Shown in pieces: positions 48,001-54,000 of a DNA stretch of 64,000 nucleotides. Location: the NCBI GenBank assembly GCA_934098525.1, contig CAKONZ010000007.1:11871-75870 (forward strand). Direction: 5' to 3'. This stretch comes from an uncultured Bacilli bacterium. GTDB lineage: Bacteria; Bacillota_I; Bacilli_A; RF39; UBA660. The position numbers are program-made. Every line of letters starts with the position of its first letter. Position 1 is the stretch's first letter.

Positions 48001-51000
48001 AGTAGCAAAGTAAGTGATTTATTAGACTTCTTTGGTTAAAAAACTAATCAAAAAATATATAAGCAACTAAGGTTTTGGTTGCTTTTTTAAAAAGGAAGTG
48101 AAAAAATGTTTTGTAAAGAATGTCAAAATAAAATAACTAATAAATCATACTTTTGTCCTAATTGTGGAAATAATTTAAAACTAAATAAAAAAAGAAATAC
48201 CAAACTAATAATGTTTATATCATTAATCATAATATCAGCTTTAATTATTGCCTTAGGATATTTTTGTTATACTTATTTTAACAAAAATAAAAATGACATA
48301 TCAAAAGAAACAAAAAATTATAACACCCTAGAAAAAATTAAATCAGATTATGAAAAAGGCAATATAAATGTAAAAGATTATTTTTCTCAACTAGTATATT
48401 TAGAATTTGATTCACCAAAATTAGATTCAAAATATCTTTCTGATTATGAATATTACACAACAGAATGTGAACTATATACAGATGAAGTATTAAATAATCA
48501 TTATGAAAAACTAGATCAAGATGTTATTAAATTTTATTTAGCTAACAAATCTATGACTAATGTAGTTCTAGGAGAGAAAAAAGCCAGTATAACTAAACTA
48601 CCAAATAACACTACCAATCTTAAAGCTAAACAATTAGAAGAAAATAAAAATAACATTATAAATCATAGATTAGAAAATGTTTACTTAACAAAAGAAGGAC
48701 ATTTCCTAATTTGGTATACAAGTCGTGGTGATGATGCAATTACAGAAAAACAATTAAAATCTCTAGCAGAAGGCTTGGAAGATAGTATCACCAAATATGA
48801 ACAATACTTTGGAATAAAGTATTCTTATACTCCTTATGTTGATAATAGATACTTTAATGAAGATTGGAAAAATGCTAAAGAAACTTTAAAACAAAATAAC
48901 ATATCAACATCATCATTAAAAACAGCCATGAGTGTTTATGTCTATGATACTGGTAGCCAAACAGTTTTAGCAAGCTATAATGATGAAAATGACGTTGTCA
49001 AATGGCTTAATCGTTCATTAGTGCTAGATATCCTAGACCAAGATGGTATCGTAAATTATCCATATATAGTAATAAACAAAAAAGGTATATCTAATAATAT
49101 TAATAGTCTAAGTCAACTCTATAATCATGAATTATTTCATCATATGCAATACTTATTTTGTAAATCAACAACAGGTAAAAGATGCCTAGCAGATGAAACA
49201 CTTATTGAAGGAATGGCAAATTTTGCAAGCGCAAAAGTAAGTGATGTGTCAACAACTAACAATTTCTTAAATAATTGGGCAGGTATTTATACAAAAAACA
49301 CAAGTACTAAATTATCTGATATCGTTGATAGCAAAGGTAGCAAAGGTTATGCTTTATTCCCATATTTTTATTCATATTCTACTCAAGTAAATAATTGGGA
49401 AAAAATACTTATGAATGCTCACAACTACAAAGATGCTTTCAACTATATCAAAAATAATACTCCTAAAAAGAACCTAGTAAGCACAATAAATGACCTAGCA
49501 TATTACTCAATTAGTCAAAATTATGATAATAAATCATTAAAATCAATAACAGGAATTAGAAACAAAATAAATTTAGAAAATAACAAAAAATACAACTTAA
49601 CAATAAATGCTGGCTCAATAGACTATTTTGATCTAACAAAAACTCCCAATCTAAATATATTAACAAAAAATAATACCTATCTAACTATAAAACTATATGG
49701 TTACAAAGAGGGAATATACAAAGAAATTAAGGCATCCTCTAACAGTATGAAACTTGATACTACTTTTTTTGCAAATTATGATAAATTTTACTTAGCAGTA
49801 ACCAATGGAGATTTAACAAACTCTCATAATTACACAATAGATACTAAAAACAATAAACAACAAAACAATAATGAATATATAACTTCTTTCAATAACTATA
49901 ATATAGAAATAATCATAAACACAAAAAATAATGGGGTAGAATTAGAACAACATTCAAAAGGTACAATTGATGAACTTCATCAAAAAGAATATTTAGAAAC
50001 AAAAACAAACACAATGGGTATAAAAATTACCAATAAAATATATTATGATTTTGATACAGGTTATACTTATATATCACAACCATTTAAAGAAGATTATTGG
50101 CTTAAAGAAAAAGGAACATCACAAATAGTAGATTTAGGAAAAATCCTAGACAAACTAATTAGTATGGAAGATGTTACAAAAATCTCAAACAATCACTATA
50201 AAGTAAAAATGACAGAAAATGATATTAAAAATCTAATAAATTTTGCAAACTCTTCCTCATCAACTATCAAAAAAGATATCAATATTGACGTTTATACTAA
50301 AAATGGCTATATAGTAGAATTAAAATATGACTTTACAAAATTAATATCAGGATTTGAACAATTTACCACAACAATAAAATTTTCTAACTATAATAATGCC
50401 GGTAATGTTGAAATTCCTCAAACAATAATTAATAATGCAAAAAATCAATAATTTTAAGGAGATAGAAAATGAATCAAAGTAATAAAATAATAGGGTATGA
50501 TCCTCAAACGGGACAACCAATTTATGCAAATCAAAATACAAATATTAATTGGTCAATGCCAACAAAATCACCAAAAAACAATAATAAAGTATTTATTATA
50601 ATAGCAATACTAATAGTTTTTGTGGTTATTACTGTTTTATATTTTTATAATCAAGATAAGAAAAAATCAACAAGTAATGAAACACCTAACAATTCAAAAG
50701 TAGAAAACAATAACAATAAAAATGATGAACAACAAAACAATAATTCAACTGACAATTCCAAAGATGAAACTAACACAAGTGATGAAAATAACTCATTTTT
50801 ATTTAGCATAGAGGATGTATTTACTATTACAGATAGAGGTACAGTTGTAACAGGACATGTACAAAGAGGAAAATTAAAAGTTGGTGATACTGTTCAAATA
50901 ATTGGATTGGACAAAGAAACAATAACAGCAAAAGCAACAGGAATGGAAATGTTTAGAGAGAAAAAAGATGAAGCGAATGTTGGAGATAATGTTGCAATAC

Positions 51001-54000
51001 TTTTAGAAAATATCACAAGAGAACAAGTACAAAAAGGACAAGTATTAGCAAAACCAAATTCAATCAAAGCAGTAAAAAAATTTGATGCTGATGTATATAT
51101 TTTAACAAACGAAGAAGGTGGAAGACATACCCCATTCTTTGAAAGTTATAGACCTCAATTTTGTTTCAAAGAAGCAAACATTACTGGTGAAATTGAATTG
51201 CCAGAAGGTGTTGAAATGGTTATGCCTGGTGATAACATAAAATTAACTGTCAAACTAGTTCATAATGTTGCAATGGAAAAAGGTACAGAATTTAATATTA
51301 AAGAAGGTGACAGAATAGTTGGAAAAGGGACTGTTACCAAAATATATTAAATTAAATAACACAAAAACATTGTCATAAAAAAATAATGTGTTATAATAAA
51401 AATGTCTTTCTTAAGACATCTTTATTGGCCCGTTGGTGAAGTGGTTTAACACGTCGCCCTCTCAAGGCGATATTCATGGGTTCAAACCCCATACGGGTCA
51501 CCAAAAAGATTATTAAACCTTTGTATATCAAAGGTTTTATTCTTTTACTCTAAAATTGCTAAAACAAACTTCATCATGAAACAAACATTTTAATATACAT
51601 AAAAATAAGTACTACTTTAAAGTTAAAAATTATTTACTAGAATATTTAATTTTATCTACACTATAAAAAAATAGGTAGAATTTATCTACCTATTTTTACT
51701 TTTGTAATATAATACTATGAAAGGAGATGTAGATATGTATAATTATCCTTATTATGGTAATAGTGGTTTTGGTGATGGCTGGTGGATTTGGATTGTAATA
51801 ATTATAATTTTCTTCGTACTATTCTTTAACAATAACAATTCTGGTAATAAAGGTTGTTGTAGATAAGCACTTTAGTGCTTTTTTTCTTGATTTTATTTGA
51901 CATTTAAAAATATTTATACTAAAATTAAACCATAATCAAATTGATGATGTGGACAAGTTTTATTAATTACTATTTTTAGCGAATTGGGTATGGTGAAAGC
52001 CAATAAATAAGTGTAATAAAATAACACCACGGAATGCTTATTTGAAATAAGTAGAATAAGCCGGCAAAAACCGTTATATAATTGAGATATCTAACTAACG
52101 ATAAGAAGGGTGGTACCGCGTAATGCCCCTTTAAATTGTTAGTTTTTTTAATGGGAGGGAAGAAAAAATGGATATTAAAAAGTTATATGAAGACCTAAAA
52201 GATTATTTAAAAAAAGAAATAGTAATAGAAGGTTGGGTAAAGAATCATAGAAAACAAAAAGAATTTGGTTTTATAGATTTTTCTGATGGAACATGTTTTA
52301 AATCAGTTCAAGTTGTATATGATGACAAACTAAGTAATTTTTCAGAAATATCAAAAATAAGAGTTGGCTCAGCCATAAAAGTAATAGGAATAGTTGAAGA
52401 GTCACCTGCTAAAGGACAAGAATTTGAAATAGTAGCAACCAATGTAATTTTATTAGGAGATTCACCTGAAGACTATCCAATTCAACCAAAAAGACATTCT
52501 AGAGAATTCTTAAGAGAACAAGCTTACTTAAGACCAAGAACAAATCTTTTTAATGCCATTTTTAGAGTTAGAAGTGTAGCAGCTCATGCTATCCATGAAT
52601 ATTTTCAATCAAATGGATATATTTATGTTCATACACCACTAATAACAACAACTGATTGTGAAGGTTCAGATCAAATGTTCAAAATTACTACTTTGGATTT
52701 TGATAACTTACCAAAAACAGATGGTAAAGTAGACTTTTCAAAAGATCTATTTGGTAAAAAAGCATACATTACTGGTTCAGGACAACTACACGGAGAAGCC
52801 TTTGCTATGGCTTTCAAAAAGATATATACTTTTGGACCTACATTTAGAACAGAAAAATCAAATACTAAAACTCATGCTAATGAATTTTGGATGATTGAAC
52901 CAGAAATAGCATTTTGTGATCTTGAAGGACTTATGGACATAGAAGAATCAATGTTAAAATTTGTAGTAAAATATGTAATGGATAAATGTCCTGACGAAAT
53001 AGATTTCTTTGATAAATTTGTTGAAAATGGTTTAAAAGAAAAATTAAGAAAAATAACAGACAGTAAATTCATAAGAATTGACCATAAAGATGTTATAGAT
53101 ATTCTAAAAAAAGCCGATGTAAAATGGGAATTTGAACCTGATTACAACGAAGATATTGCCAAAGAACATGAAAGATATATAACAGAATATTTTAATGGTC
53201 CAGTATTTATCAAAAATTGGCCAAAAGATATAAAAGCTTGGTATATGAAAGAAAATGATGATCATAAAACAGTAGCGGCGGTTGACCTAGAAGTTCCTGG
53301 AGCAGGAGAGTTAATGGGAGGATCTCAACGTGAAGAAAACTACGATAAACTAATTGCCAGAATGCAATCATTAAACGTTGATCGTGCACCAATTGAATGG
53401 TTCTTAAACTTAAGAAAATATGGTGGATGTGTTCATTCAGGATTTGGAATGGGATTTGAAAGATTAATAATTTATTTAACTGGAGTAGAAAACATAAGAG
53501 ATGTAATACCATTCCCAAGAACACCAGGAAACTGTGATTATTAAAATTAAAAAGTAATGTTAAACGACTCTTGACATTACTTTTTTTTCTATCTATAATT
53601 GTTATGCACCTAACAAAAAAGGAGAAAATATGAAAAAAGGAATATCTTATGAAATTATAACATTGGATAATAATTTAAAAAGATTTGCATTAAACAAAGG
53701 GAAGTGTGCTATTCCCAAAAATCCTCCAAGTCCCATTCAAATGAAAATATTACATTATCTAATAATCAATCAAGAAAAAGACATATATCAAAGGGACTTA
53801 GAAAAATTATTAAATCTCAGAAGATCAACTATATCAGGAATCTTAAAAACAATGGAAAAACATGACATTATAACTAGAAATGATTCAAAAATAGATGCCA
53901 GAAGTAAAAAAATAGAACTATCATCATCATCAAAACAGTTCTACAAACAATCAAAAAAAGTATTTAAAGAAGTAAATGATATTCTTATAAAAAACATAAG

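Follow-up and report, generated by a model that had tools for sequence, protein, structure and literature searches.

What a protein built from two of the three domains of elongation factor Tu (EF-Tu), without the GTPase domain and with a membrane anchor in its place, may do in a bacterial cell is the question raised by an open reading frame (ORF) of 293 aa in a 64,000-nucleotide stretch of DNA (the window) from an uncultured Bacilli bacterium (contig CAKONZ010000007.1, positions 11,871 to 75,870). The ORF was found to belong to a family of anchored EF-Tu paralogues that has a single origin, is under purifying selection in its EF-Tu-derived part and is linked to an operon headed by a gene for an SPFH protein. 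With moderate confidence we propose that its product is a dedicated, surface-displayed pair of EF-Tu beta-barrels, acting as a binding module within an SPFH-organised envelope protein set.

Domain make-up and family of the anchored EF-Tu paralogue

The ORF is uninterrupted, and its ATG lies 17 nt past the stop codon of the preceding gene (Table 1). Pfam analysis identified GTP_EFTU_D2 at aa 124-194 (E value 7.7e-15) and GTP_EFTU_D3 at aa 198-292 (7.2e-29), and no match to GTP_EFTU (PF00009) in the 293-aa protein. The EF-Tu models of NCBIfam aligned only from model position ~180-204 to 394, giving 259-263 bits versus cut-offs of 449-522; with the equivalog model TIGR00485 the score was 258.9 bits, below the cut-off of 522.4, with domain II (PF03144) and domain III (PF03143) in the EF-Tu arrangement and the GTP-binding domain I missing. 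In the PDB, aa 101-292 aligned with EF-Tu 193-383 (E 8e-71) with one 1-residue indel, and domains II-III were 58-61% identical to solved EF-Tu structures. An AlphaFold2 model based on a 36-sequence family alignment had per-residue confidence (pLDDT) values above 90 at aa 110-293, a helix at aa 40-60, disorder at aa 64-104 and a small N-terminal hairpin; its folded part superimposed on many EF-Tu chains with about 1.0 Å over 185 residues. A previous inspection of the DNA (the sequence-only reading) had taken the C-terminal 185 aa for EF-Tu domains II and III and the G domain as replaced by a 40-aa tail, a transmembrane (TM) helix and a low-complexity linker. These results bear out both assignments, and the EF-Tu sequence blocks quoted in that reading are all present in the ORF.

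A tblastn search with the EF-Tu G domain against all frames of the window (E ≤ 10) revealed no G-domain remnant, the one weak match at 55650 being unrelated; the gene thus carries no frameshifted G-domain scar. The frameshifts, stop-codon scars or leftover G-domain sequence that would betray a recently decayed tuf copy were likewise not found in any window frame.

In a search space of 5.8 billion proteins, ~58-60 clusters of 250-330 aa contained domains II and III without a G domain, so that other genomes do encode such anchored ORFs, as had been suggested for checking. All of these clusters outranked the first true EF-Tu (394 aa, about 60% identity), and in every one a strongly hydrophobic segment preceded the IEDVF motif. 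The N-termini were of three types, namely a GYD(S/P)QTGQPIY or FDPMTGQPI tail, a CxxC...CxxC zinc ribbon (at least 13 clusters) and a short MNKTNK head. The clusters originated from rumen, goat, human (Hadza) and other gut metagenomes, and relatives in the NCBI database are named 'Bacilli bacterium ... hypothetical protein' and similar; the taxonomic range is given by labels of the kind 'uncultured Bacilli/Bacillales'. A 99% identical copy of the window protein was present on three other contigs. A degenerate DNA pattern for GQV.AKPNSI, a motif that also occurs in the true EF-Tu of many phyla, retrieved at least four family members from genome contigs (L038, L041, L058, L122), and a word-index search with the anchor region of the family protein P0007 yielded five fragments only. 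The genomes of family members encode PASTA kinases, MraY, FtsW, DivIVA and SepF, indicating walled monoderm hosts.

No family covering the whole architecture was found in Pfam or NCBIfam. Phage and plasmid collections contained ordinary tuf genes only, none of them covering the anchor, and PADLOC gave nothing above noise, with weak matches (E about 1e-4) confined to the TM/low-complexity region. The papers searched for truncated, anchored or paralogous EF-Tu contained no account of the family. A match of the tail/TM region to the 'surface-associated' NCBIfam model SAG1386/EF1546 (30 bits versus a cut-off of 80), for which no useful literature was found, was not used as evidence. Two longer proteins, P0062 (446 aa) and P0128 (520 aa), resemble true EF-Tu with internal duplications; having probably arisen by chimeric assembly or by the joining of tandem tuf genes, they do not belong to the anchored family. 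At one locus two domain II-III genes stand in tandem (L133:9001-9771 and 9941-10618), the second product being nearly stalkless, with the TM helix leading directly into KMNKGTNTTYDKNG.

Alignment with true EF-Tu and a neighbour-joining tree of domains II-III placed the family in a separate clade (bootstrap 100/100). Mean identity in this region was 0.69 within the family and 0.63 between the family and true EF-Tu (maximum 0.77). Nei-Gojobori ratios of nonsynonymous to synonymous substitution (dN/dS) were 0.07-0.37 for domains II-III (0.07, 0.11, 0.18, 0.26 and 0.28 for the closest pairs), indicating purifying selection, and 0.2-1.2 for tail plus linker; selection on the family is weaker than we would expect for tuf. 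With its open frame, the family-wide dN/dS values and the lack of a G-domain scar, the gene is an intact one, as the sequence-only reading had maintained, and not a decayed tuf.

Sister architectures and origin

Two further anchored architectures were identified, which, like the SPFH/zinc-ribbon operon described below, had escaped the sequence-only reading. In two lineages a gene directly upstream of the domain II-III gene codes for a protein in which this tail, TM helix and stalk lead into the EF-Tu G domain and domain III (referred to as G+D3; L001:6749-7984 and L010:8837-9985; P0121-P0127). Domain II has been excised precisely from these proteins, with 1-2 residues left of 87 columns. Their GTPase motifs have decayed: the glycine of DxxG is lost in three of the seven (DMPEH, DMPAH, DMPSN), as is the switch-I Thr in three, the catalytic His84 is lost in two, and NKxD is changed to SKxD in six and to NNCD in the seventh. 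The tRNA face of domain III (RPQFYFRTTDVTG, IREGGRT) is rewritten.

The second architecture came to light when aa 1-84 of the window protein served as query in an exhaustive representative search. P0265 (495 aa) combines the same tail and TM helix with all three EF-Tu domains; it was present in two independent samples (L135:5709-7196, L136:2787-4274), at the operon slot that the window gene holds. It has DLSSH instead of DCPGH at G3 and Lys instead of the switch-I Thr, and has lost GGRHTPFF. Identity of its domains II-III was 0.67-0.69 to the anchored family versus 0.58 to true EF-Tu, and its G domain has a 5-residue deletion and a GKSTLTSAITK signature in common with the G+D3 proteins. The architecture of P0265 is probably the ancestral form, and judged by their motifs the sister forms are dead GTPases.

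The true EF-Tu of Candidatus Faecisoma and of Bacilli metagenome-assembled genomes carries GTKFSIREGG and FRKQLDYAEAGDNAG, both of which are also found in the paralogues; since the lineage's true EF-Tu already has them, the duplication is placed within this lineage. The simplest history we infer is that the lineage's own tuf copy would have been fused to a cytoplasmic tail and signal-anchor module like that of neighbouring envelope proteins. This single anchored full-length paralogue would have lost GTPase switching, and domain loss would then have given rise to the G+D3 form and, in most lineages, to the domain II-III form from which the G domain is gone altogether.

Membrane topology and operon setting

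The TM helix is the sole hydrophobic segment of the window protein, lies near the N-terminus and is without a cleavage-type signal, the arrangement of a type II membrane protein. Charges in the 15 residues on each side of the helix were determined for 67 anchored proteins. Mean values were +3.1/−0.1 for the N-flank and +2.4/−2.3 for the C-flank, with a stalk net charge of −5.7, and the N side was the more positive one in 60 of the 67; the flanks of the window protein had +3/0 (N) and +3/−2 (C). N-terminal tails reached up to 114 aa or began with a zinc ribbon, and by established signal-anchor rules neither long N-tails nor zinc ribbons are expected to cross the membrane. The shortest members start with MNKTNK followed by 18-25 hydrophobic residues and are shaped like an N-in Sec signal anchor. 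In P0284 a repeat tail and TM helix precede an SBP_bac_3 extracellular solute-binding domain (E 1.5e-36), and in proteins encoded by neighbouring operon genes the same N-terminal modules are joined to TSP3+VWA and WG-repeat domains. On the basis of the flank charges, the long or zinc-ribbon tails, the signal-anchor-like short forms, the SBP_bac_3 analogue and the domains of the neighbours, the domain II-III unit is predicted to lie outside (N-in/C-out). Among the options of the sequence-only reading, this prediction favours the one of a surface EF-Tu similar to the moonlighting adhesins.

The exhaustive search with aa 1-84 matched 57 proteins, many of them with 1-13 (Y/F)DPxTGxP repeats, one TM helix and a long C-terminal region. 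Tandem repeats of this motif (P0245-P0296) were observed ahead of unrelated C-terminal domains in single-pass membrane proteins. The motif is predicted by the structural model to form a small beta-hairpin and seems to represent a cytoplasmic tail module not described so far. Tails of adjacent G+D3 and domain II-III proteins are 45-70% identical and have genome-specific expansions in common, and in L009 the WG-repeat protein and the domain II-III protein have an identical FDPMTGQPINQQPQQ tail. This co-variation within genomes suggests that the operon tails bind a common cytoplasmic partner.

Five closely spaced genes run in one direction, with the EF-Tu-derived gene in last place, and no terminator-like site was found on the plus strand from 44000 to 51515. 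The SPFH-SHOCT protein (70-85% identical in L009 and L131-L134) is always encoded at the operon head; the 498-aa zinc-ribbon protein is 64-71% identical in the same loci, and the zinc-ribbon-Yip1 protein is syntenic in L004, L009, L133, L134 and L135. The EF-Tu-derived gene stands at or near the end of this SPFH-SHOCT/zinc-ribbon operon in 10 of 13 contexts, and the operon surrounds members of all major branches of the family (L001, L004, L009, L041, L131-L135). In its minimal form it comprises genes for the SPFH protein, a Zn_Ribbon_TF protein, a 151-aa membrane protein and the domain II-III protein; expanded forms add WG-repeat, zinc-ribbon-TSP3-VWA and small membrane proteins. In the three deviating contexts the gene follows secA (L008), lies beside gatCAB and tRNA genes (L006/L010) or has an unclear setting (L122). 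The protein encoded directly upstream in the window, in L009 and in L135 contains an HExxH motif. The 781-aa window version had no match in Pfam, NCBIfam or the PDB, is 47% identical to its 827-aa orthologue of L009 with HELFHH conserved, and may represent a new membrane-anchored metalloprotease-like family.

With genes for an SPFH protein and a zinc-ribbon TM protein in one operon (44435-47161), the locus contains a YdjGHI-like module. In Bacillus subtilis, YdjG carries a TF_Zn_Ribbon domain and YdjI is a band 7 protein (PMC9239133); the membrane proteins YdjG/H recruit this soluble SPFH protein (PMC8581546, PMC9239133). The likeness to pspA-ydjGHI (samGHI) is one of domain content only, consisting of a soluble band 7/SPFH protein and a TFIIB-type zinc-ribbon TM protein, whereas the gene order, the SHOCT end and the additional zinc-ribbon/TM proteins with large C-terminal domains differ, and no adjoining pspA was seen (no PspA domain in the genes scanned beside the operon). 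Membrane-anchored beta-barrel proteins encoded beside an SPFH gene are known from the NfeD/YuaF-type partners, whose cytoplasmic NfeD barrel is preceded by two or three TM helices. No Pfam match to NfeD was obtained for the EF-Tu-derived protein at E ≤ 0.1, and the likeness is an analogy of context only.

In the arrangement we propose, the protein would be a type II (N-in/C-out) membrane protein with a rigid EF-Tu domain II-III barrel pair as ectodomain. Its cytoplasmic tail (zinc ribbon or (Y/F)DPxTGQP hairpin) would tie it to the SPFH/YdjG-like scaffold of the same operon, the TM helix would anchor it, and the ~50-residue acidic disordered stalk would place the domain II-III unit in the wall zone.

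Table 1. Features of the anchored EF-Tu paralogue, its operon and the adjoining tRNA gene, in window positions.
Feature	Position	Strand	Basis and remarks
Anchored EF-Tu domain II+III ORF, 293 aa	50469..51350	+	Pfam, NCBIfam, PDB, AlphaFold2; stop codon 51348-51350
Ribosome-binding site AAGGAG	50456..50461	+	Read from sequence; 7 nt before ATG
N-terminal tail, aa 1-40, predicted cytoplasmic	50469..50588	+	Ends KSPKNNNK; AlphaFold2 strands 7-10 and 17-19; N-flank +3
Single TM helix, aa 41-60, predicted signal anchor	50589..50648	+	Hydrophobicity, flank analysis; AlphaFold2 helix 40-60
Acidic low-complexity stalk (N/E/D/S/T-rich), aa 61-107, predicted disordered	50649..50789	+	pLDDT <50 for aa 64-104; net charge −4
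EF-Tu domain II beta-barrel, aa 108-197	50790..51059	+	E. coli ~209-296; PF03144, PDB alignment, column comparison
EF-Tu domain III beta-barrel, aa 198-293	51060..51347	+	E. coli ~297-392; PF03143, PDB alignment, column comparison
SPFH (Band_7_1)-SHOCT protein, soluble, 408 aa	44435..45661	+	First operon gene; Pfam Band_7_1 7.5e-06, SHOCT 1.2e-05
498-aa protein, two N-terminal zinc ribbons, soluble domain, two C-terminal TM helices	45665..47161	+	Sequence; weak Zn_Ribbon_TF match; YdjG-like domain content
Multi-pass zinc-ribbon-Yip1 membrane protein, 292 aa	47161..48039	+	Pfam Zn_Ribbon_1 2.1e-07, Yip1 4.6e-05
781-aa zinc-ribbon/one-TM protein, large C-terminal domain	48106..50451	+	Sequence; HELFHH (HExxH); directly upstream of EF-Tu-derived gene
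Promoter-like TTGTCA-16-TATAAT, extended TG	51370..51397	+	Between ORF stop and tRNA; 11/12 consensus positions; second best in 8.3 kb; consensus match only
tRNA-Glu (CTC)	51427..51503	+	ARAGORN; 76 nt downstream of ORF
Terminator-like hairpin and T-run after tRNA	51515..51537	+	First such site downstream of operon

The tRNA-Glu gene that the sequence-only reading had seen next to the ORF was identified by ARAGORN; the echo of tuf-in-tRNA-operon arrangements read into it did not survive the comparison of loci. Among those scanned, a tRNA gene within 2 kb was found outside the window only in L006/L010 (tRNA-Asn and tRNA-Glu, upstream), and none was nearby in L001, L002, L004, L008, L009, L041, L122, L131, L133 or L134. 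We judge the adjacency incidental, since it lacks conservation and the tRNA gene is preceded by a separate promoter-like site. Translation genes flank the operon in two contexts, with a class I Glu/Gln-tRNA synthetase and asparaginyl-tRNA synthetase in the window (42646-44295, 52168-53544) and gatCAB and tRNA-Asn/Glu in L006/L010; this is probably chance in small genomes, though tRNA-Glu does recur.

Mobile-element genes adjoin the operon at several loci (L004:9417-12809; L009:11090-12673; L131:1-1136 and 15081-17122; L008:11432-12451). They encode serine recombinases, a PemK toxin, a phage integrase, a relaxase/NikA pair, a sortase and Bro-N/RhuM proteins, and integrative elements may carry the operon or adjoin it. 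Unrelated to the EF-Tu-derived gene, a GGGtGRT-family protein (PF14057, E 1.7e-187) is encoded at window positions 41574-42578, beside a NifU-like protein.

Retained EF-Tu surfaces and candidate roles

The sequence-only reading had assigned both the Glu/Asp of EDVF and the Arg/His of GRH to the pocket that holds the aminoacyl end of aminoacyl-tRNA. The first pair belongs there; R318/H319 of GGRH contact the tRNA backbone on the T-stem side instead. The aminoacyl-pocket residues E115, D116, T128 and N174 of the window protein correspond to E226, D227, T239 and N285 of Thermus thermophilus EF-Tu (numbering as in PMC3239215). All seven key pocket/T-stem residues of domains II-III are retained in the window copy, as in 43 of the 58 clusters, the tRNA residues of domain I being absent. 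At least one of the seven, which are >99% conserved in bacterial EF-Tu (PMC3239215), is lost in the remaining 15, and the whole GGRHTPFF motif is gone in P0049, P0057, P0058 and P0059. Fixed family-specific changes comprise E243Q (100%), K252T, R279K, G280D, G296N, P300A, H301A/S and K373E, and the 346-355 loop is variable. Residues of the GE2270A-type pocket and of toxin binding were largely kept (E215, D216 and F218 in 100%, G257 in 93%, N273 in 89% and G275 in 86%). Compared with EF-Tu itself (tuf; TIGR00485), the protein has homologous domains II-III of nearly the same structure and most pocket/T-stem residues in common; it differs by the missing G domain, the tail, helix and stalk, the predicted outside location and the fixed changes.

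Domain I provides half of the aminoacyl-tRNA site and the GTP switch. With this domain absent, an outside location predicted, key residues or the entire GGRHTPFF motif lost in part of the clusters and the sister GTPases dead, a role in translation is unlikely.

Published findings lend plausibility to a binding role. The surface EF-Tu of Mycoplasma pneumoniae binds fibronectin through two regions of domains II and III (residues 192-292 and 314-394); such surface EF-Tu has no export signal, its route is unexplained and its sequence is constrained by translation (PMC6822514). The two domains retained here correspond to these mapped regions; the moonlighting EF-Tu adhesins (M. pneumoniae, Staphylococcus aureus, lactobacilli and others), however, are full-length translation factors without a signal or an anchor, whereas here a separate G-less gene has a dedicated signal anchor and a predicted surface location. 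An isolated ~24 kDa domain 2-3 fragment of EF-Tu (PDB 5I4Q) is stable, binds proteins without domain I and contains the docking site of a contact-dependent growth inhibition (CDI) toxin (PMC5737660). It consists of the same two domains but was cut from E. coli EF-Tu with trypsin in the laboratory and is neither gene-encoded nor membrane-bound. Pbp11 of Thermococcales is likewise a G-less EF-Tu-type domain II barrel (PMC9540759), to which the window protein gave a weak NCBIfam match (2.6e-05, 24 bits versus a cut-off of 100); unlike the latter, it is archaeal, soluble, cytoplasmic and single-domain, a proteasome partner without anchor or domain III.

We therefore favour, at the strength given above, a surface-displayed barrel pair that would act as an adhesin- or receptor-like binder, re-using largely conserved EF-Tu surfaces and doing no translation work. 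Several observations weigh against this proposal. The main sign against the predicted topology comes from the sister G domains: in the G+D3 and full-length forms the P-loop (GxxxxGK[ST] in 7 of 7), the Asp of NKxD and SAL have been kept, which is odd for a domain cut off from cytoplasmic GTP and makes an inside location conceivable. Two or three lysines are also found C-terminal to the TM helix. The SPFH protein is cytoplasmic, so that direct contact would be through the tail only. Among non-redundant members the seven pocket/T-stem residues are kept at 0.94 versus a mean of 0.78 (median 89%) for EF-Tu-invariant columns (P about 0.05); no preferential loss at the tRNA face was thus seen, retention being slightly above background, and for this reason the pocket may still be used. 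Judged by residue conservation, the ligand may be tRNA-like or a pocket ligand. The ectodomain has a charge of −5.6 versus −2.0 in true EF-Tu. Finally, the window copy is itself atypical and long-branched (G222D, G275A, R279E, G280N, R288K, Y331C, R377K, G380D, T382I). Binding of polyanions (heparin, sulfated mucin) was considered separately and is weakened by an ectodomain more acidic than EF-Tu.

It is rather unlikely that the protein is instead an extracytoplasmic sensor or structural subunit of an SPFH envelope complex, responding to wall or membrane stress or serving the HExxH partner, with barrels that are a mere stable scaffold without host-directed binding. The conserved position at the operon end, the co-varying tails common to operon members, the recurrent HExxH protein directly upstream and the effect of B. 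subtilis YdjG/H, which recruit YdjI, on wall synthesis (PMC8581546) would suit such a subunit. However, the gene also stands alone after secA or beside gatCAB, the EF-Tu-derived protein is about 50-70% identical between loci compared with 70-85% for the SPFH core, and nothing connects EF-Tu barrels with stress sensing.

Quite unlikely is a decoy or bait, in which tethered EF-Tu surfaces would absorb attackers (thiopeptides and tRNase toxins that bind domain II, phage proteins, host antibodies) or report them to the SPFH/YdjI-like module. A stoichiometric extracellular sponge is weak protection, and intracellular toxins or phage proteins would require an inside-facing domain, which the topology evidence disfavours. 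Neither a defence-family match in PADLOC, nor a member in the phage and plasmid collections, nor toxin, immunity or antibiotic-biosynthesis genes in the neighbourhood were found. What speaks for a decoy is the retention of the GE2270A-type pocket and domain II toxin-binding residues, the mobile-element genes beside several loci, and truncated architectures that retain precisely those domain pairs from which antibiotic sites of EF-Tu are formed (domain II; the interface of domains I and III). The CDI toxin, moreover, binds EF-Tu domain 2 exclusively, also in the isolated domain 2-3 fragment (PMC5737660), and the operon is tied to a membrane-stress-type SPFH system (PMC8581546). In an extended version, which we regard as very unlikely, the full-length, G+D3 and domain II-III forms together would guard the cell as 'EF-Tu mimics', displaying the surfaces that phage proteins, tRNase toxins and antibiotics grasp, the attackers being absorbed or relayed via the tails to the SPFH/YdjI-like module. 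If true, this would be a decoy-based envelope defence made from a translation factor.

The proposal of the sequence-only reading that the protein binds or sequesters aminoacyl-tRNA, EF-Ts or another EF-Tu partner, here from a cytoplasm-facing (N-out) or pre-export domain at the membrane, has become highly improbable. The charge bias, the tails, the short forms and the SBP_bac_3 analogue all favour C-out. High-affinity binding of aminoacyl-tRNA is established to need the GTP form of domain I, and the His66/67 and 5'-end contacts are absent here. Key residues are lost in 15 of the 58 clusters, the motifs of the sister GTPases have decayed and the tRNA adjacency is not conserved. These arguments prevail over the complete set of seven residues in the window copy and 43 clusters with its above-background retention, the P-loop kept in the sister forms, the synthetase, gatCAB and tRNA genes flanking the gene in the window and L006/L010, and the precedent of Pbp11, a free-standing domain II-like protein that binds tRNA (PMC9540759).

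A non-functional remnant of a tuf duplication with a chance open frame, to which the long branch and unusual substitutions of the window copy and the visibly degenerate relatives P0055, P0058, P0247 and P0259 might point, is effectively refuted by the intact frame with its strong ribosome-binding site, the 99% identical copy on three contigs, the dN/dS values across ~58 clusters, the complete fixation of Q243 and the lack of a G-domain scar.

The family is new in that an EF-Tu paralogue has probably acquired, together with a new architecture, a new compartment and a new role. Reports of EF-Tu on the surface of bacteria go back two decades, and critics cite its missing export signal and translation-locked sequence (PMC6822514). 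Duplication of tuf and acquisition of a signal anchor, followed by GTPase decay and loss of the G domain, would be a genetic answer to both objections. If the outside location and the binding role are true, the protein would be the first surface EF-Tu with a dedicated gene of its own, a clean system for studying what EF-Tu domains bind extracellularly and a clear case of a core translation factor escaping adaptive conflict. The family is of interest for work on translation factors, moonlighting proteins and the envelopes of gut Firmicutes, and through it a group of zinc-ribbon/TM proteins not described before is connected with an SPFH scaffold in uncultured Bacilli from gut and rumen.

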